64,000 bases of DNA from Escherichia coli. Its GTDB lineage: Bacteria; Pseudomonadota; Gammaproteobacteria; Enterobacterales; Enterobacteriaceae. The notes beneath the pieces are model-generated. The model was not told the origin of the DNA, made no database searches, and saw nothing but the letters and a program-made list of their open reading frames with translations. Of the stretch, positions 1-54,951 are shown piece by piece (position 1 is the stretch's first letter; each line of letters begins with the position of its first letter). The translations under genes and the position numbers were made by a program. The stretch lies in assembly GCF_003991155.1 (NCBI RefSeq), contig NZ_CP031294.1; one strand, written 5' to 3'.

Positions 1-1056
1 ATGAGCGAAAACGGCAATAAAAACATAGCGATCGTTGAAGCATTTTCAGAAACAGATAAAAAGACAGGCGAAGTTGTTACGTTGGTTCCTAACACTAATA
101 ACACTGTTCAGCCTGTTGCTTTGATGCGTCTGGGCCTCTTCGTTCCGACGCTGAAATCGACATCCAGAGGAAGAAAGGGGCAAATGGTCTCTATGGATGC
201 CTCTGCTGAACTCAAACAGCTGTCTCTGGCAAAAGCCGAAGGGTACGAAGACATAAGGATCTCTGGCCTTCGGCTTGATATGGATAACGACTTTAAAACG
301 TGGGTGGGAATAATCCACGCGTTTGCCAAACACAAGGTTGTTGGCGATACTGTCACGTTGCCGTTCGTTGAGTTTGTAAGGCTGTGTGGCATTCCGACCG
401 CCAGGTCATCAGCGAAGTTACGCAAACGCCTGGACAGTTCGCTAAGCCGTATTGCCACAAATACCATCTCGTTCCGTAGCAAAGGCTCTGATGAGTTTTA
501 CGTAACGCATCTTGTGCAAACGGCAAAATATAGTGTCAAGCACGATACGGTCGAACTGAAAGCAGATCCCAAGATTTTCGAACTCTACCAGTTCGACAAA
601 AAGGTTCTTCTGCAACTCCGGGCTATAAACGAACTCTCAAGAAAAGAATCCGCTCAGGCGCTTTATACTTTTATTGAAAGTTTGCCGCCTGATCCGGCAC
701 CAATATCACTAGCCCGTTTACGCGCCAGACTTAATCTGACAAGTCGCACTATTACTCAGAATGCGACGGTAAGAAAGGCTATGGAACAGCTGCGAGAGAT
801 AGGATATCTCGATTACACGGAAGTTAAGCGCGGAAACTCGGTCTACTTCGTCATCCACTATAGGCGGCCAAAGTTACGCCAGGCACAAATATCAACAAAA
901 ATCGATAATGATGAGACGGAATATAGCCTCCCAGATGAGAATCAAGATGACATTATCGACGTTGTGCCTGACGAAAAAGAAGGCAAAATGGTCATGTTGA
1001 GTAAAGAAGAACTGGCGCTTCTCGAAGAGTTGCGCAAGGCAAAGACTCGCAAATAG
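1..1056 (+). CDS. Putative plasmid-type replication initiator (RepA-like, iteron-binding)
   Basis: 351-aa ORF starting at window position 1, immediately followed by a dense array of direct and inverted short repeats (iterons). Family assignment is by context only, not by recognised motif. Confidence 0.5.
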
Positions 1057-1059
1057 CCC

Positions 1060-1540
1060 AACCACTGTAGTTAGTAGTAAGGCTCACTATCCACTGTAGT
1101 GAGCCTCACTTATATCTGTAATTCGCTATCCACTATAGTGAGTATCGTTATCTGTTGATAACCACTGTAGGCAGTAGAATGCAAATACTGAATTAAATGT
1201 TAGTGATCACTAACACTGATGAAACAAGGGCTGCGAGGTTAGTGGTCACTGGGTATCTTGGAAAATTTACTGTCTATAGTGGTTGTTGTCGCCCTCATCT
1301 TTGAGCGTATCCACTGTGGCGAGTGGATATCCACTGAAAACAGCAAAGGCTTACTCACCATAGTGGATACCCGCTGGACATCTCACTCCAATACTCACCA
1401 TAGTGGTTGTTTGATGCGAATGAAAGGTTGTCTACTCGCTACAGTGGTTAGCAGATATGTAGGAAGGGTTTGTTACTGACTACAGTGGATAATGAGCTGG
1501 ATACGAATGCGGTGAGCAGACTACTCACCGCAGTGGTTGG
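1060..1540. repeat. Iteron array: about 11 copies of a ~14-19 bp motif (core CCACTGTAGTGAG / CTCACCATAGTGGAT) in both orientations
   Basis: Read directly: copies near 1061, 1087, 1127, 1161 in one orientation and 1270, 1308-1335 (dyad), 1351, 1392, 1431, 1476, 1520 in the other. Confidence 0.75.
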
Positions 1541-1545
1541 TGCTA

Positions 1546-1758
1546 TTAGTGTATTTTCTTCAACAGACCCCAAAGTGTTCCGGCTTTTGTAGTCAGTTTT
1601 CCTGTTTCTGGATCGTACATACGCCATTCACGCCGCTGGTGGACGATATACCCATCTTCACGTTCCAGACGCTCAAGAATGCCAGGCTGCTTGAAACCCT
1701 TAGCACGCCAGTAGCCGCTTGTTTTCTCGATTTCCAGACCTGCCAGTGTTAATGCCAT
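1546..1758 (-). CDS. Hypothetical protein
   Basis: 70-aa ORF abutting the downstream gene (shared coordinate 1758); no recognisable motif. Confidence 0.3.
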   Translation of the reverse strand: MALTLAGLEIEKTSGYWRAKGFKQPGILERLEREDGYIVHQRREWRMYDPETGKLTTKAGTLWGLLKKIH

Positions 1759-2093
1759 TATCCAACCTCCTTGCAGTCATCGAAAAGGTAGCTTTGCTGA
1801 GAAGCGTGAACGCCATAGAAGCCCTTGTATTTGTTGTATACGAAGTGGTCTTCTCCGACGCCGGTTAATTTGCCATTACGATTTGTGAGATATGGGGATG
1901 ACAACACTCGATCGTCACGCACAACATAGAACTGGTCGCCGCTGTCTACGACCATCGCTCCATATGGTGCTTTTATGACGTCGGTAAGAGCGCCATTCTT
2001 AACGTCGGCTACAGACATTTCACACTGATAAACAGTGGTGTCGGCTACAACGATCGAAGAAAGGAACAACAGCGCGAATGGGATGGCCTTCAT
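1758..2093 (-). CDS. Hypothetical secreted protein
   Basis: N-terminal signal-peptide-like stretch MKAIPFALLFLSSIVVA. Confidence 0.45.
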   Translation of the reverse strand: MKAIPFALLFLSSIVVADTTVYQCEMSVADVKNGALTDVIKAPYGAMVVDSGDQFYVVRDDRVLSSPYLTNRNGKLTGVGEDHFVYNKYKGFYGVHASQQSYLFDDCKEVG

Positions 2094-2308
2094 GCTGCCA
2101 CCTCTTTGATTACATCAAATGCTGAATTAAATACGAGCACGATAGCCAAAGCGTTTATGACTACGTCGTGCACCGGGGAAAAGACTTTACGAATGACACC
2201 AGTGAAAATGCAGTCGATGACAAAAGCTATTGAAACGATGAGTAACAAGTATTCAATAAAAATCTTCATGATAGGTAGATACTAACTTATATAAATTTTA
2301 CTGTAAAC

Positions 2309-2584
2309 TCACTCAAAAGTGCTGATGCTTAAAATACGCTCAAGATGTTCGGCATCTTCATCACTGATTTGTTGAGTCTCTTCTACGTACCAACAGTTGC
2401 CGTTATGCCAACAAACACCATCATCATCAACCATCACTGAATCAGCGTCATGACCTGTATATTCAACGAGAATACGCTGGATCAGCGCGTCAGTTTCTTC
2501 GTCGTTAAGGCCATCGGCTTTGACCATAAAAAGCGGAAACACGTCATAGACAGTGCTGGTAACGATTCGAACTAAAACTCTCAT
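2309..2584 (-). CDS. Hypothetical protein
   Basis: 91-aa acidic ORF in the minus-strand gene run. Confidence 0.35.
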   Translation of the reverse strand: MRVLVRIVTSTVYDVFPLFMVKADGLNDEETDALIQRILVEYTGHDADSVMVDDDGVCWHNGNCWYVEETQQISDEDAEHLERILSISTFE

Positions 2585-2639
2585 GTGTTTTTCCTTTTGT
2601 GGTTAGTGTTTACTTATTTTGTTAGTTATGAATAGGCGA

Positions 2640-3065
2640 TCAATCTTCTTGTTTAGGGAAAAACTGTTCAATAACTCTGTCAACGGCTGTGTCTATATGG
2701 AGTAGATGCCACACAACCATATCTTTGCTTCCCATGCCTTGTGTGAATATCACGTCATACTTACGCCATGCGCAGTGGAACCAATATGCTGAGTCATCAA
2801 TTGGTAAATCCTCTCCCGCCTCTTTGAAGTATTTCAGCAGCATTGCCTGCTCTGCCGTTGGCGTTGGACCTATTTCCTGAGCGTACATACGGATGAATCG
2901 CTGCCAGTCTGTCTCGTCGGGGGTTGGATCTGGTGGGGTCATTTCTGCGATAGCGTTTCGTAGCTGATGCGCCCAATCAGGTTCAGGAAAGCCTTTTGCT
3001 ACTTCATCATCAATAACATCCAGAGCCACGTTTGCGGCATCGTAGAGTTTCTTAATAACTGTCAT
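2640..3065 (-). CDS. Hypothetical protein
   Basis: 141-aa ORF preceded by an AAGGA-type RBS and the conserved palindromic upstream motif at 3077-3100. Confidence 0.45.
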   Translation of the reverse strand: MTVIKKLYDAANVALDVIDDEVAKGFPEPDWAHQLRNAIAEMTPPDPTPDETDWQRFIRMYAQEIGPTPTAEQAMLLKYFKEAGEDLPIDDSAYWFHCAWRKYDVIFTQGMGSKDMVVWHLLHIDTAVDRVIEQFFPKQED

Positions 3066-3110
3066 GTTTTCTTATCCTTTTAAACAAATTGTTTTCTTAA
3101 TAAGATAATT

Positions 3111-3140
3111 GCGATAAAAAAGGCGTCCAACTGGACGCCT
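3111..3140 (-). terminator. Rho-independent terminator (minus strand)
   Basis: Hairpin AGGCGTCC-AACT-GGACGCCT followed on the minus strand by a T-run (plus-strand AAAAA at 3116-3120). Confidence 0.5.
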
Positions 3141-3156
3141 GAACTTTTTAGGGGAG

Positions 3157-3987
3157 TTATTTCACTGTAATGAAAGGAGTGTTAGCCCCTTGAGTCATGT
3201 ACTGCGGTAACTGGCCATTCCATTTATTGATGGCTTCCAGTTCCATAACGTTCGGGTTTTGACGCAGAGCTTCACCGCGCAGACGAATGGCGTCCGCTTC
3301 TGCTTGCGCACGAGCACGGATAGCATCAGCTTCACCATTAGCCTGTTCACGTAGCATATTCGCCTCAGCTTTACGTTGTTCAACTTCCTGCTGACGTTGC
3401 AGAGTACGCTGGTTAGCCGTTACTTTGGCGTTAATAGATTCAATGACAGTTTTTGGGTAATCAGGCTTTCCAACCCATGACAGGCTCAGTACCTCAATAC
3501 CAACCGGAGACATCTCTTTCTGAATATCTTTCAGTGCGTTGTCCAGCAATTGTGCCTTACCACCGTCGATAAATGAGTCAGTGGTCATACGGCTGGCCAA
3601 ACGGTTTAGAGAGTCGGCAATTTTCTGACGCAGATCTGATTCGGTGATATCGTCTACGCCTTTGCGATAGGTCTGGAACACCGTCGTTACCTTGTCACGA
3701 TTAACCAGATACGCAACGCCAATTTTGTGACCAATAGCAGTACCGTCACTCATCTGGAATGTGAACGGCTCGTCGTAGGTCTTCATTTGTTTGAAGGTCG
3801 GGAATACGTAAAGTTCGGTGTTAAGACCTGTCCATTGGCGACCAACGCCAACCACTTCACCAATCCCTTTGTCTTCACCTAATTTGTTTACTTTGATGCC
3901 AACGTATCCAGGCTCCACGCGATCGCAGCCAGTAAGACCCATTGTGCAAATAGCCGCCAGAGCAACTGCAAGTAAACCTTTCTTCAT
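3157..3987 (-). CDS. SPFH/band-7 (HflK/YqiK-like) lipoprotein
   Basis: Signal peptide with lipobox LTGC; C-terminal Ala/Glu/Arg/Gln-rich coiled region typical of the SPFH family. Confidence 0.55.
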   Translation of the reverse strand: MKKGLLAVALAAICTMGLTGCDRVEPGYVGIKVNKLGEDKGIGEVVGVGRQWTGLNTELYVFPTFKQMKTYDEPFTFQMSDGTAIGHKIGVAYLVNRDKVTTVFQTYRKGVDDITESDLRQKIADSLNRLASRMTTDSFIDGGKAQLLDNALKDIQKEMSPVGIEVLSLSWVGKPDYPKTVIESINAKVTANQRTLQRQQEVEQRKAEANMLREQANGEADAIRARAQAEADAIRLRGEALRQNPNVMELEAINKWNGQLPQYMTQGANTPFITVK

Positions 3988-4251: not shown

Positions 4252-4279
4252 GATAAAAAAGGCGTCCTGTGGACGCCTT
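4252..4279 (-). terminator. Rho-independent terminator (minus strand)
   Basis: Hairpin GGCGTCC-TGT-GGACGCC with a T-run on the minus strand (plus-strand AAAAAA at 4255-4260). Confidence 0.5.
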
Positions 4280-4283
4280 GTGT

Positions 4284-5357
4284 TTACTCTTCTACTGACT
4301 CGGTGGGGTTGTCTTTTGCTCTTCGGTCGTCGATTGCCTGCAAAGCCGCAATGATTTCAGCCAGTGGCTTCTCCCGATACATCTCGACGATCTGCGATTT
4401 GGTGTATTTCTTGTCACCAATTTCAACTCGCCCGCTGGCGTTCTTTGGCAGGTATCCTTCTTCCAGCATGTACTCGACGAGCGATTCGATAACGTCGAGG
4501 CCACGAGTAGGATCGAAGTAGAATTTCCAGGTGCATTTGCCATACGGTGGTGCAACTTTGTTTTTGATGCATTCTGCGCCTACGTCCTGGCCGATCTTCT
4601 CTTTACCATCCTTCATCACCGATGCACCAAGACGGATACGTACAGAAGCGTAGAACTTCGGTGAATCTCCACCTGGCGACGTAGTAGGGTCGCCAAACAT
4701 TACACCGATTTTTGTGCGAACCTGATTCAAGAAGATGATGCAGGCGTTGTATTTGCGTGCCCACAAAGCCAGAGTAGGGAAGTTCGCACTCGTCGCACGA
4801 GCCAGTGCCGTATTGTCGTTCATGTTTAGCTGATCTTTGTCTTTGGCAGTGCCTTCAGCCATCTTTTCGAACTTCTCGGCTTTGGAGTTCGGAACCATAG
4901 ACGCAAGAGAGTCAGCCACGATACAGATTGGTGCTGATTCGGGGATAAGCTCTTCATCACGAACCAATTTAAGTATTGTGCCGATCAACTCTACAGAGTC
5001 TTCGAAGGTATCTGGCTGCTTGTATACCCACTGACCGTCATCCTCATCTGCGTTCAGGCCATTGGCGACAGCCAGGCCAACGTCAAAACTGTTTTCATGA
5101 TCGAGGAATACCGCCAGACCATCTTGTTTTTGAGCGGAGATCATCGCTGCTGTTGCAAGGAACGTTTTCCCTGCACTTGGAGGACCGAATACTTCGACGA
5201 TACGACCACAAGGGAAGCCGCCATCGTAACGACCAGAAATAGCTTTGTTTAACGGTGGAAAGCCTGTATCAATCCAATGAGTTACTTTCTGAATTTCGTC
5301 GTTGCTACCGATTTTCTTTTTCAGAGCAAGTGCCAGTGCGGATTTTCCTTTTGCCAT
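4284..5357 (-). CDS. RecA-family recombinase (RecA/UvsX-like)
   Basis: Walker A GPPSAGKT, Walker B-like ICIVADS, RecA-like core of 357 aa. Confidence 0.65.
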   Translation of the reverse strand: MAKGKSALALALKKKIGSNDEIQKVTHWIDTGFPPLNKAISGRYDGGFPCGRIVEVFGPPSAGKTFLATAAMISAQKQDGLAVFLDHENSFDVGLAVANGLNADEDDGQWVYKQPDTFEDSVELIGTILKLVRDEELIPESAPICIVADSLASMVPNSKAEKFEKMAEGTAKDKDQLNMNDNTALARATSANFPTLALWARKYNACIIFLNQVRTKIGVMFGDPTTSPGGDSPKFYASVRIRLGASVMKDGKEKIGQDVGAECIKNKVAPPYGKCTWKFYFDPTRGLDVIESLVEYMLEEGYLPKNASGRVEIGDKKYTKSQIVEMYREKPLAEIIAALQAIDDRRAKDNPTESVEE

Positions 5358-5359
5358 GA

Positions 5360-5632
5360 TCAGGCTCCTTTTGTTTCGTTGATTCGTTTTAAAGCGGCGG
5401 ATTCATCGAATACAATCGCATCGTGGTTAAGGAGTCTGGATACACGAGCGAGGATTTTTACGACCTGCTCGCTGACTAATCCAAACTCGCGATCTGTCGC
5501 TTTCATTCCGGCAGCGCCTAGAATTGACGGCAGTGCGATGACAGCGTACTCACCGTGATAAAAGACAATCTCTTTTGCCAGTTGGGCAGGGGTGGTTGTA
5601 GCGCCATTGATAATCGATTTAAGCATTAGCAA
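5360..5632 (-). CDS. Hypothetical protein
   Basis: 90-aa ORF tightly packed between the recombinase and flap endonuclease genes. Confidence 0.35.
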   Translation of the reverse strand: MLMLKSIINGATTTPAQLAKEIVFYHGEYAVIALPSILGAAGMKATDREFGLVSEQVVKILARVSRLLNHDAIVFDESAALKRINETKGA

Positions 5633-6621
5633 TACCTTTCGAATGGAAGAACAAACACTTCAAGGTCTTCAAGGAACGAACGGAAATTCAGCTCGTAGCA
5701 CAGTTGCTCGAATGCTTTCACGTCACGATTGCCTTTGATTGTTTCGATTTCGGTAGGCGGAAACTTCGTCTCAATCAGGTTCATTAGCGTGATGTTTCTC
5801 TTGAACGCTTCGAGCATTCGACAGCCTGTTTTCTCGTTGAAGGCATTCTTCGCTAGTTTGTTGAAGGCGGTCTTATGACGCCCTTTATTAACCACGATTG
5901 AGCCGTCGTTGATGCCGCGTACCATCGTTGCGACACTTCCCCATTCATGCAGCAGCTCTTTCGCACCGCCAGCACCAATGCCACCAACACCGCTAATGTT
6001 GTCCGAGTTATCGCCTTGTAATGCTTTTGCTTCCAAAAATGCGCGAGGCGTGGCGAATCCTGTCAGCTCCGCAAATTGCTCAAAATTAACCTGCTTGTTT
6101 TTGGCGTCTTCACGCAGGCTTACCCAGCTTACGTTTTCACGAACTAACTGAAGCCAGTCGCTATCGCCTGTTAACAGATAGATGTGTTCAACGGTTGGCT
6201 GCGGTGCCATGCGGGATACCAGCAGCCCGGCCAGATCATCCGCTTCTGCATCTTTTGCAATGAGTTGGGTAACTCCAAGCGCGGTCATCATTTTGAGGAT
6301 GTATGGCTTCTGGATAGCAAAGCCTTCCTTCATCTTTTTCATATCAGGATCGTCGTCGCGATTTGCTTTGTAGTCCGGGTAAAAGTCGCGACGCTTGTCA
6401 CTAAATCCATCCCAAAGAATCATAGGTCGGGCATGGAGGATGGAGGCATAACGACGGACGTTCTTAACAAAGCCGAAAGCAGCCTGTACTTCCATTTCGC
6501 CGTTGTGCAATTTGTCAGATTGTTGGTGGTAATAACCCAGGCTATTGCCATCTACGAAGAGATAATTCACCGGTACATTCCTTCCAAAAAGTAAGGCGTC
6601 CGTAGACGCCTTACTGGTCAC
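5626..6621 (-). CDS. Flap endonuclease / 5'-3' exonuclease (RNase H-like, FEN family)
   Basis: Acidic catalytic clusters (AKDAEADD, TGDSDWLQL) and an H3TH-like glycine-rich segment (NISGVGGIGAGGAKELL). Confidence 0.7.
   Translation of the reverse strand: MTSKASTDALLFGRNVPVNYLFVDGNSLGYYHQQSDKLHNGEMEVQAAFGFVKNVRRYASILHARPMILWDGFSDKRRDFYPDYKANRDDDPDMKKMKEGFAIQKPYILKMMTALGVTQLIAKDAEADDLAGLLVSRMAPQPTVEHIYLLTGDSDWLQLVRENVSWVSLREDAKNKQVNFEQFAELTGFATPRAFLEAKALQGDNSDNISGVGGIGAGGAKELLHEWGSVATMVRGINDGSIVVNKGRHKTAFNKLAKNAFNEKTGCRMLEAFKRNITLMNLIETKFPPTEIETIKGNRDVKAFEQLCYELNFRSFLEDLEVFVLPFERYC
6584..6612 (-). terminator. Rho-independent terminator (minus strand)
   Basis: Hairpin AAGGCGTC-CGTA-GACGCCTT with a minus-strand T-run (plus-strand CCAAAAAG). 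Confidence 0.5.
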
Positions 6622-54913: not shown

Positions 54914-54951
54914 TCATTGCGCTAATAGTAAGTATATACTTACTAATTGAG

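Follow-up and report, generated by a model that had tools for sequence, protein, structure and literature searches.

An iteron array, very probably a copy-control locus of P1/RepFIB type, downstream of repA in an SSU5-like Escherichia coli phage-plasmid

Described relatives and the initiator gene

Work on the FIB replicon showed that its downstream iterons EFGHIJ alone displace an FIB plasmid, resulting in incompatibility and curing, while the origin block does not; handcuffing of the downstream block to the upstream iterons is the mechanism preferred by its authors (PMC11983097). For mini-F (RepFIA), the control block has been summarised as inhibiting replication via RepE-mediated pairing (PMC11983097). 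RepFIB (P307, F, pO157), with downstream iterons E-K, is the closest characterised relative of the replicon described here; mini-F (ori2-repE-incC) also has its Rep_3 gene flanked by origin iterons on one side and by a control block downstream, as here, although its Rep lineage and iteron differ. In P1, which like the present replicon belongs to a phage-plasmid, the layout given in curated record AF234172 has nine annotated RepA-binding iterons in incA, beginning at the repA stop codon (0 nt), three forward and then six reverse, 30-41 bp apart and followed directly by parAB, while oriR consists of direct, 21-bp-phased iterons with DnaA boxes and Dam sites. In ori2-inc of Vibrio cholerae chromosome II, a negative-control region that adjoins an iteron origin, iterons are combined with non-iteron 39-mers, and control involves titration and handcuffing (PMC6090056); the initiator, RctB, is unrelated to RepA. 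A literature search, with Lindler 1998, Hu 1998 (pMT1) and Spiers 1993 (RepFIB repeats) outside its scope, returned no description of the array reported here and no dispensability, copy-number or incompatibility result for the corresponding locus of the SSU5/pLF82 lineage.

The window, i.e., the whole stretch of 64,000 nucleotides that was analysed, derives from an SSU5-like E. coli phage-plasmid and has repA as its first gene. Bases 1-1600 are 100% identical to pPK8276-110kb and 99.8% identical to pLF82/phage Cyrano, and they match 455 PLSDB records, including pHCM2 of S. Typhi and pMT1 of Y. pestis; PLSDB typing assigns the plasmid family to IncFIB. The pMT1 replicon, according to Lindler et al., reportedly resembles those of RepFIB, P1 and P7. 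An earlier note on this DNA had recognised a RepA-like initiator gene, and our results place it in the Rep_3 type. The open reading frame (1..1056, + strand) encodes a 351-aa Rep_3-family initiator of the P1/RepFIB lineage, with Pfam matches to both winged-helix domains (WH1, Rep3_N, 2.6e-10; WH2, Rep3_C, 1.4e-3), 49% identity to P1 RepA over 267 aa (E = 5e-93) and 61% identity to classical RepFIB RepA, the repA DNA of RepFIB being ~66% identical to that of the window. A C-terminal extension of ~58 aa is absent from P1 RepA. NCBIfam returned no match for RepA, the cra-like ORF that faces it or the next ORF, and a PDB sequence search with RepA found nothing at E <= 1.

The array between repA and the cra-like ORF

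The 489-bp gap between the repA stop codon (1056) and that of the convergent cra-like ORF (1546) contains 11 full iterons and a degenerate twelfth, with the consensus TAWCCACTRTAGTGAGTA and a unit of about 18-19 bp. This agrees with the earlier count of about eleven copies at 1060-1540; the motif itself, previously put at ~15 bp, is longer. Four forward iterons come first, at 1059..1077 (CAACCACTGTAGTTAGTAG), 1088..1106 (TATCCACTGTAGTGAGCCT), 1127..1145 (TATCCACTATAGTGAGTAT) and 1159..1177 (TAACCACTGTAGGCAGTAG). They are followed by iteron 5 on the minus strand (1267..1285, CAACCACTATAGACAGTAA as read on that strand), by iteron 6 (1308..1326, TATCCACTGTGGCGAGTGG) and the degenerate iteron 7 (1328..1346, TATCCACTGAAAACAGCAA) on the plus strand, and by five more on the minus strand: iteron 8 at 1351..1369, iteron 9 at 1391..1409 (40 bp from iteron 8), iteron 10 at 1432..1450 (41 bp from iteron 9), iteron 11 at 1473..1491 (41 bp from iteron 10) and iteron 12 at 1521..1539, which ends 7 nt short of the cra-like stop codon. 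Written out, the orientation is ++++ | -++ -----, so the two orientation blocks proposed previously hold roughly (++++, then mostly -), but two + copies, at 1308 and 1328, lie within the second. Centre-to-centre spacings were 29, 39, 32, 116, 33, 20, 31, 40, 41, 41, and 48 bp.

The first iteron begins 3 nt past the repA stop codon, and this +3 offset is conserved in all relatives examined. Set against P1 incA, the array thus has four forward iterons, then mostly reverse ones, a spacing of 29-48 bp and an offset of 3 nt, and both arrays show spacings of three to four helical turns. RepFIB shares mixed-orientation control iterons that start from the rep stop codon, there with an offset of ~3 nt, but has 6-7 downstream copies against 11-14 in the window lineage. 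The right half of the iteron, CTGTAGTGAGTA, is common to RepFIB and the window replicon, whereas the left half is ATAAG in RepFIB and TATCCA in the window replicon; since the left halves differ, cross-incompatibility between the two is not expected. The P1 iteron, GATGTGTGCTGGAGGGAAA, is unrelated except for a CTG.AG.GA skeleton.

These repeats are much more frequent than chance would give. Nine matches to a 12-nt core pattern were found in the window, all within 852-1491, compared with 2.25 +/- 1.4 matches in shuffles, none of 100 of which reached nine. When a weight matrix was derived solely from the 11 upstream iterons, all of which are outside the window, the 11 downstream copies all scored 13-28 bits, and the remaining ~62 kb yielded four matches of 8-10 bits, i.e., shuffle level. 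The reciprocal test, a downstream matrix applied to the upstream iterons, gave 8.7-24.8 bits, and over the whole 110-kb plasmid the iteron motif clusters only around repA. For iteron 7, the upstream-only matrix gave 20.7 bits and the downstream matrix 10.3 bits, and its sequence is very similar to that of the origin-proximal iteron at -56 on the upstream side (TATCCACTGTAATCAGCAA). A division into distinct upstream (GAGAGCA) and downstream (GTGAGTA) subclasses was rejected as confined to the window lineage, the downstream copies of SSU5, pHCM2, and pMT1 often reading GAGAGTA. One further iteron-like site lies inside the repA coding sequence (852..870, + strand, CATCCACTATAGGCGGCCA; 14.8 bits with the upstream-only matrix) and is conserved in SSU5, pHCM2, pMT1, and a Rahnella plasmid. 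Its Arg codon is AGG, a rare Arg codon in E. coli, which preserves the CCACTATAG core; in classical RepFIB the same HYRR residues are encoded CAC TAC CGG CGT (repeat I6).

Arrays of relatives differ by whole ~40-bp units, giving 11-14 copies, and with the copy at 1328 being degenerate, the array could be regarded as left over from tandem duplications, now decaying and functionless. We consider this highly unlikely, since in an alignment of pLF82-type, SSU5, pHCM2, and pMT1 sequences 85% of iteron columns were invariant, compared with 63% of spacer columns (Fisher p = 1.5e-7), the array is kept in elements from E. coli, Salmonella, Yersinia, Enterobacter, and Rahnella, and the same architecture is retained by an independent lineage that uses another iteron. 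The spacers within the array are mutually unrelated.

The earlier note had also described a dyad at 1308-1335. A perfect 14-bp palindrome, AGTGGATATCCACT, does occur at 1322..1335, where the tail of iteron 6 meets the head of iteron 7, but it is not conserved: SSU5, pHCM2, and pMT1 read AGTAGATATCCGCT or AGTAGACATCCGCT, and the palindrome is therefore probably incidental. F carries an inverted-repeat operator for RepE dimers at its promoter. While an operator of this kind, as in F, pSC101 and pPS10, is a conserved palindrome of iteron half-sites over the rep promoter, 1322-1335 is downstream of repA and varies among relatives; it was thus rejected as a RepA-dimer operator, and no conserved equivalent of the F operator was found here.

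Iteron 2 is enclosed in a hairpin at 1080..1106 (+ strand; stem GGCTCACTA / TAGTGAGCC), with an RNA fold of -22.1 kcal/mol (z = -5.2). In SSU5, pHCM2, and pMT1 the hairpin is followed by TTTTGTTTAT, and repA therefore has an intrinsic-terminator-like end in these relatives; the T-run is lost in the window, and terminator prediction returned a terminator-like site in SSU5 and none in the window. A promoter and terminator scan of the array remained at shuffle level, and an Rfam scan of 900-1800 gave sub-threshold miRNA noise only. Considering that the array fills the entire gap between two convergent genes, that iteron 2 sits within a terminator-like hairpin in relatives and that the window region has no other predicted terminator, the hairpin and RepA-coated DNA might mainly insulate repA and the convergent cra-recA operon against read-through from each other, with copy control secondary. 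However, one terminator would be enough for this, with no need for twelve sites that change in step with the origin iterons; moreover, P1 has the same arrangement though parA follows in the direction of repA, and classical RepFIB and the Rahnella plasmid share it with different neighbours. A mainly insulating role is thus very unlikely.

The upstream origin and exchange of the replicon cassette

To the left of repA, the 743 bp that precede the gene were taken from the plasmid record with 100% identity to bases 1-1600 of the window. They contain 11 iterons (5 + 6), all direct and on the plus strand, 40-545 bp before repA, with spacings of 21, 21, 21, 23 and of 21, 21, 21, 21, 22 bp, and the origin module is tandemly duplicated, unlike that of RepFIB; in P1 it is single. 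Near repA, a perfect DnaA box occurs only once, 283 bp upstream of the gene, and the same region holds the only strongly AT-rich stretch (24-30% GC) and 10 GATC sites. In RepFIB, too, a DnaA box and a GATC cluster precede the origin iterons, while 21-bp phasing and a GATC cluster are common to P1 oriR; the leader, TTATCCACTGGATAGATCCAA, is identical in P1 oriR and part of the region can be aligned with it. These results support an origin just upstream of the window, within the 743 bp before repA. The earlier note had suggested that the origin iterons may lie upstream of position 1, and on extending the sequence a second iteron block with a DnaA box was indeed found there.

Since the downstream array is a dense cluster of predicted initiator sites, it could itself be oriV or a second origin, with RepA opening the DNA there; a survey of related IncpKPHS1 phage-plasmids gave only the downstream repeats as replicon iterons (PMC6735626), and 1140-1220 is mildly AT-rich (35-40% GC). 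However, no match to the DnaA box (TTWTNCACA) was found in 1057-1545, the array as a whole has 35-50% GC with no strongly AT-rich stretch, and it contains one GATC site against the 10 upstream. Whereas the origin iterons are direct and helically phased, the downstream ones vary in spacing and orientation, and it is the upstream region that can be aligned with oriR of P1, an experimentally defined origin. Between the window-type lineage and that of PhiR41_1, the distal half of the array has been inverted, as would be more in keeping with a pairing site that works in either orientation than with an origin. We therefore regard origin function of the array as very improbable, and its incA-like position and layout, without origin features, bear out the earlier suggestion of an incA-type control locus.

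The sister phage-plasmid PhiR41_1 provides a natural exchange of the whole cassette. Its flanks are near-identical to those of the window, but the replicon between them is swapped: its RepA is just 46-49% identical, and a different iteron, TATGCTGTCAGCGG, occurs in five copies upstream and nine downstream of repA, the downstream array starting at an offset of 0 nt from the stop codon. On the right, PhiR41_1 is 100% identical from 1546 onward, yet it has a different repA and different iterons; the cra-like ORF (70 aa, 1546..1758, minus strand, annotated 'P1 Cra protein' in Cyrano) is thus outside the replicon and is the right boundary of the exchangeable cassette. When the iteron motifs of Cyrano, PhiR41_1, and P1 were each searched for in all three replicons, every motif was found in its own replicon only, on both sides of repA. 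As read from these sequences, the iterons on both sides change with the initiator, which is a natural covariation.

This covariation also bears on the idea that the repeats serve as a partition centromere or are bound by some protein other than RepA. Mixed-orientation arrays of short repeats are typical of plasmid centromeres too, and the central GTTAGT-N4-ACTAAC boxes described below resemble sites of a different, dimeric protein. However, the repeats have the sequence of the origin iterons and are exchanged together with RepA. In addition, unlike in P1, the par genes of the window lineage are tens of kb away; none adjoins the array, the annotated parA of Cyrano being ~32 kb distant and ParB-domain genes lying at 66.9-68.2 kb of the plasmid record. 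A centromere, or an array of sites for another protein, is therefore extremely improbable.

The central element and control of copy number

In the middle of the array, a conserved element that is not an iteron spans 1196..1256 and comprises two 16-bp GTTAGT-N4-ACTAAC boxes, 39 bp apart: box 1 (1199-1214, GTTAGTGATCACTAAC), a perfect palindrome, and box 2 (1238-1253, GTTAGTGGTCACTGGG). In the four-lineage alignment 85% of its columns were invariant, and it is conserved across six lineages with two different iteron types. In IMG/VR, 71 of 78 matches to the element fell within iteron arrays beside a repA homologue, and the element was absent from P1, classical RepFIB, and SJ46. The boxes are not inverted iteron heads (CCACT), since they also occur in replicons whose iterons (TATGCTGTCAGCGG) lack CCACT. 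When compared by eye with consensus sequences, they fitted none of the Tus/Ter, IHF, CRP, LexA, SlyA or TrpR sites; the closest such match was to the Ter core GTTGTAACTAA, at 9/11 positions in some lineages and 7-8/11 in the window.

Since the central element was kept through a swap of RepA and iterons and neither P1 nor classical RepFIB has it, it could conceivably be the site of a second factor. SSU5-type and pKPHS1/PhiR41-type arrays would then not be plain incA loci, and the bipartite, operator-like element would bind a factor that modulates handcuffing, a suggestion that we put forward only tentatively and consider rather unlikely. If true, the candidate factor could be a host protein, a protein of the phage-plasmid, or RepA itself in a non-iteron binding mode, as with the 39-mers at ori2 in Vibrio, whose inc region is the closest precedent for non-iteron sites lying within a control array; roles might include the release of copy control on prophage induction or the folding together of both iteron arms.

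For the array as a whole, the comparison with described systems is more direct. The initiator is a Rep_3 homologue, the same iterons lie on both sides of its gene, and the downstream set starts at the stop codon, is irregular in spacing and mixed in orientation, and covaries with the initiator. Its counterparts are P1 incA and RepFIB repeats E-K, which are known negative-control and incompatibility loci in those replicons, and by analogy 1057-1545 is very likely the locus through which an iteron replicon of P1/RepFIB type limits its copy number and exerts incompatibility.

From the repeats, homology, conservation, and covariation observed, we infer RepA binding, handcuffing, an effect on copy number, and incompatibility. 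The 11-12 iterons of the array are predicted binding sites for the RepA encoded immediately upstream. As in P1, mini-F, and RepFIB, RepA on the array would pair with RepA on the origin iterons (handcuffing), either in cis, with the 1-kb repA looped out, or in trans, on a sister copy, and such pairing would block opening of the origin. The array may also titrate RepA. As copy number rises, the pairing partners would become more concentrated and initiation would stop, and the replicon would in this way keep the SSU5-like phage-plasmid as a low-copy plasmid prophage. P1 is maintained at roughly unit copy number, below the 5.5 of the present lineage. The latter value is from Cyrano/pLF82, at ~5.5 copies per bacterium (PMC9928086). 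Since the array is larger than in P1 (nine control iterons) or RepFIB (6-7) and contains a conserved non-iteron element, its regulation may differ from theirs.

None of the feature tables of six related records has a repeat or protein-binding feature in the 489-bp stretch, and in pHCM2 and PhiR41_1 a hypothetical ORF is annotated across part of it. In one phage record, two iterons of a related type are labelled attL and attR. The practical value of our results therefore lies in annotation: the control locus at 1057-1545 and the origin in the upstream 743 bp define the SSU5-like minimal replicon. Mutual incompatibility becomes predictable, and elements with CCACTRTAG and TATGCTGTCAGCGG iterons should be compatible with each other. 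Since the downstream block alone is effective in RepFIB, the array would also be a suitable fragment for incompatibility-based curing. The arrangement of copy control after repA is largely ordinary and well understood, and the scientific gain is small, being the extension of the P1/RepFIB design from the conjugative plasmids of RepFIB and from P1 to another lineage of phage-plasmids; the central element is the only feature of the array that could lead somewhere new.

The initiator gene and its host element

The window starts at the ATG of repA, a 351-codon ORF on the plus strand (1-1056), which converges on a 70-codon ORF, the next gene, on the opposite strand (1546-1758) and leaves a gap of 489 bp, 1057-1545. 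Bases 1-1600 were 100% identical to the starts of two E. coli plasmids, pPK8276-110kb (NZ_CP080149.1) and NZ_OW849379.1, 99.8% identical to pLF82 (now named phage Cyrano) and 84% identical to Salmonella phage SSU5. They also matched 455 plasmids in PLSDB, including pHCM2 of S. Typhi and pMT1 of Y. pestis; the PLSDB records examined were of the IncFIB type. Since the annotation of Cyrano assigns tail, lysis, integrase, repressor and DNA-replication genes to the rest of the window, its sequence identifies it as an SSU5-like phage-plasmid and the ORF at 1-1056 as the predicted gene for its plasmid-maintenance initiator. On the minus strand at 4284-6621 lie three ORFs (one RecA-like, of 357 aa, one of 90 aa, and one of 331 aa that, by eye, looks like a 5'-3' exonuclease), whereas the 99.8% identical Cyrano record has a single 2340-nt 'RecA' CDS over this span, a discrepancy that probably reflects an error in one of the annotations.

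RepA carries the Pfam domains Rep3_N (WH1; 2.6e-10) and Rep3_C (WH2; 1.4e-3), and shares 49% identity with P1 RepA (267 residues, E = 5e-93) and 61% with the RepA of classical RepFIB. At the DNA level, repA is ~66% identical to the RepFIB rep genes of thousands of IncF plasmids. Residues 294-351 (nt 880-1053) form an acidic, low-complexity C-terminal tail with a short, helix-like terminal motif (16 letters). This tail was found in SSU5-type, PhiR41-type and classical RepFIB initiators and, among the initiators compared, was missing from the RepA proteins of P1 and SJ46.

The downstream array and the upstream origin

Repeat finding and motif scans located eleven full 19-bp repeats (iterons; consensus TAWCCACTRTAGTGAGTA) in the gap at 1057-1545. 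Plus-strand copies start at 1059, 1088, 1127, 1159 and 1308; minus-strand copies occupy 1267-1285, 1351-1369, 1391-1409, 1432-1450, 1473-1491 and 1521-1539; and a twelfth, degenerate, occupies 1328-1346. The first iteron starts 3 nt past the repA stop codon, and four forward copies are followed by a mostly reverse block (++++, then -++-----), with spacings of 29, 39 and 32 bp and, later, 40, 41, 41 and 48 bp (~3-4 helical turns). A 12-nt core pattern matched 9 times in the 64-kb window, as against 2.25 ± 1.4 times in shuffles, with all 9 matches falling within 852-1491. The earlier note was therefore right in its repeat count and coordinates and approximately right in describing two orientation blocks, although the unit is closer to 19 bp than to the ~15 bp it gave. 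The dyad it reported does exist as a palindrome (AGTGGATATCCACT, 1322-1335), but this is lineage-specific and was set aside as an operator. The iteron head, TATCCAC(T), at 1088-1096, 1127-1135, 1308-1316 and 1328-1336 matches the DnaA box TTATCCACA at 7-8 of 9 positions.

The region upstream of repA was read from a circular record identical over bases 1-1600 (743 bp, 109,635-110,377 of NZ_CP080149.1, i.e., 2636-3378 of its retrieved part, L003, and 4258-5000 of retrieved sequence L001). These 743 bp consist of two tandem, mutually alignable modules, A and B, a duplication of ~375 bp; both contain iterons phased at 21 bp, a DnaA box and ~10-bp repeats rich in GATC. Module A starts with the DnaA-box-like TTATCCACT, which also reads like an iteron head. 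It further contains ~10-bp repeats with GATC, arranged in a run, and five direct iterons at -543 to -439 (upstream of the repA start; spacings 21, 21, 21 and 23 bp). Following a ~100-bp stretch of 24-30% GC, module B has the sole perfect DnaA box (TTATCCACA, -283). Its GATC run has partly decayed, and its six direct iterons (-162 to -38; spacings 21, 21, 21, 21 and 22 bp) abut repA. There are 10 GATC sites upstream, most of them in module A, versus one in the downstream array. Extension upstream, as the earlier note had proposed, thus revealed a second iteron block with a DnaA box, and its guess that the origin iterons lie before position 1 was borne out by the 11 direct iterons, the perfect DnaA box, the 24-30% GC stretch and the 10 GATC sites. 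That the array is itself the origin fails on every feature tested, as it has no DnaA box, AT-rich region, GATC cluster or phased direct repeats.

With a weight matrix built from the eleven upstream iterons only, each of the eleven downstream copies was recovered, with scores of 13-28 bits, as was the degenerate copy (20.7 bits). In the rest of the window, it gave four matches of 8-10 bits, the level of shuffled sequence (0-8 matches), and in the 110-kb plasmid the motif clusters at the replicon only. A partition centromere would be another use for such repeats; however, origin iterons and array share one and the same motif, and the array lies far from the par genes.

The same matrix scored an iteron-like site inside the repA CDS (852-870; 850-873 in the matrix scan) at 14.8 bits. 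It retains the core CCACTATAG through the Arg codon AGG, which is rare in E. coli, and is kept in all five lineages with the window's (CCACT) iteron type, even Rahnella, whereas classical RepFIB encodes the same residues by other codons. The site is close to the end point of P1 RepA, beyond which the window RepA continues as its 58-aa C-terminal extension.

Conservation, exchange and the central element

The architecture is retained in SSU5, pHCM2, pMT1, an Enterobacter plasmid and a 230-kb Rahnella plasmid (repA DNA only 71% identical), with 11-14 downstream copies, the first four always at about +3, +32, +71 and +104 from the repA stop. Invariant columns made up 85% of iterons versus 63% of spacers (four-lineage alignment, Fisher p = 1.5e-7), and arrays differ in length by indels of whole ~40-bp units. 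Such selective conservation contradicts the view of the array as a relic. A strong hairpin at 1080-1106 (-22 kcal/mol, z = -5.2) encloses iteron 2; in SSU5, pHCM2 and pMT1 it is followed by TTTTGTTTAT, making an intrinsic-terminator-like end of repA (compare 6086-6128 of retrieved sequence L002), and this T-run was lost in the window lineage.

The phage-plasmid PhiR41_1 has near-identical flanking genes (100% identity from window 1546 onward), but its RepA is only 46-49% identical, and its single origin module has five iterons of different sequence, TATGCTGTCAGCGG, nine further copies of which start from the stop codon of its repA. Motifs were tested against replicons in a 3x3 design (Cyrano, PhiR41_1, P1): each motif was confined to its own replicon, on both sides of rep. 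Hence the array moves and evolves together with its initiator, as expected of cognate binding sites. SSU5-like phage-plasmids that are otherwise near-identical have swapped the complete replicon cassette, made up of the origin iterons, repA and the control array (1150-3060 of PhiR41_1, L011, versus window 1-1545 plus L001 4250-5000). Its breakpoints are at window 1546 and immediately ahead of the first origin iteron; the exchanged part does not include the DnaA-box/GATC leader. The two replicon types should be mutually compatible. In Klebsiella phage pJN2-26 (MZ779062.1, L013), features annotated 'attR/attL' at 1246-1265 and 2516-2535 coincide with two TATGCTGTCAGCGG iterons flanking repA; a prophage finder almost certainly took these direct repeats for att sites.

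Between the fourth forward and first reverse iteron, a gap of 90 bp contains a non-iteron element (1196-1256), two 16-bp boxes of the form GTTAGT-N4-ACTAAC, 39 bp apart: box 1, GTTAGTGATCACTAAC, a perfect palindrome (1199-1214), and box 2, GTTAGTGGTCACTGGG (1238-1253). At 85% invariant it equals the iterons in conservation, and its spacer is fixed in length and variable in sequence. It occurs once in the 110-kb plasmid and is common to six lineages with two unrelated iteron types; its orientation relative to repA differs between lineages. Since it does not covary with iteron specificity, an iteron derivative was ruled out. Scanning IMG/VR with AGT-N4-ACTAACCT-N31-ACTAAC gave 78 loci, 71 of them inside an iteron array adjoining a repA homologue and the other 7 consistent with chance; among the replicons compared, the element was missing from P1, classical RepFIB and SJ46. 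It looks like a candidate site for a dimeric protein. Two other near-identical 16-bp palindromes, GTAAGTATATACTTAC and GTAAGTATGTACTTAC, lie far apart (window 54928-54943 and NZ_CP080149.1 76422-76437) and may be operators of another regulator.

A probable P1/RepFIB-type control locus

In the curated P1 record (AF234172), oriR comprises DnaA sites, five Dam sites and five 21-bp-phased RepA-binding iterons containing PrepA, and its left end is identical to the module A leader, TTATCCACTGGATAGATCCAA. P1 incA has nine RepA-binding iterons from the last base of the repA stop codon, three forward and six reverse (spacings 31, 41, 40, 31, 31, 31, 30 and 31 bp); the window array likewise begins at the repA stop (3 nt on), with a forward block, then mostly reverse copies, at 3-4 helical turns. 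Classical RepFIB follows the same plan, with iterons, ATAAGCTGTAGTGAGTAAG, whose right-hand 12 nt, CTGTAGTGAGTA, are common to the window iterons. The arrangement is the textbook P1/RepFIB design, departing from it only in the duplicated origin module (P1, PhiR41_1 and classical RepFIB have one; the Rahnella plasmid has two), the large array and the conserved central element. In a 2025 study of RepFIB, the downstream block EFGHIJ alone displaced a FIB plasmid and the origin block did not, and Rep-mediated handcuffing of downstream with upstream iterons was proposed (PMC11983097).

We consider it very likely that 1057-1545 is an incA-type negative-control and incompatibility locus. The incA-type copy-control reading of the earlier note is supported by the P1/RepFIB layout, the matching origin iterons and their covariation with the initiator, the function itself being argued by analogy. 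From P1, F and RepFIB, we infer effects on copy number and incompatibility: RepA would bind the array iterons, and RepA-RepA contacts would pair them with origin iterons, either in cis, with repA looped out, or in trans between copies, which would block origin opening; the array would also titrate RepA. The ~5.5 copies of Cyrano measured per bacterium (PMC9928086) fit stringent control. Transcriptional insulation is possible as a side effect; however, that role is needless given twelve covarying sites, and P1, of the same design, has a co-directional neighbour.

The feature tables of six related records inspected annotate no repeat or protein binding in the array, and in pHCM2 and PhiR41_1 a hypothetical ORF is annotated across part of it. 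The searchable literature held no description of it; older pMT1 papers, which may show these iterons, lay outside that search. Since its design is the textbook one, the array of this phage-plasmid would be a new instance of the known P1/RepFIB-type locus, not a new kind.
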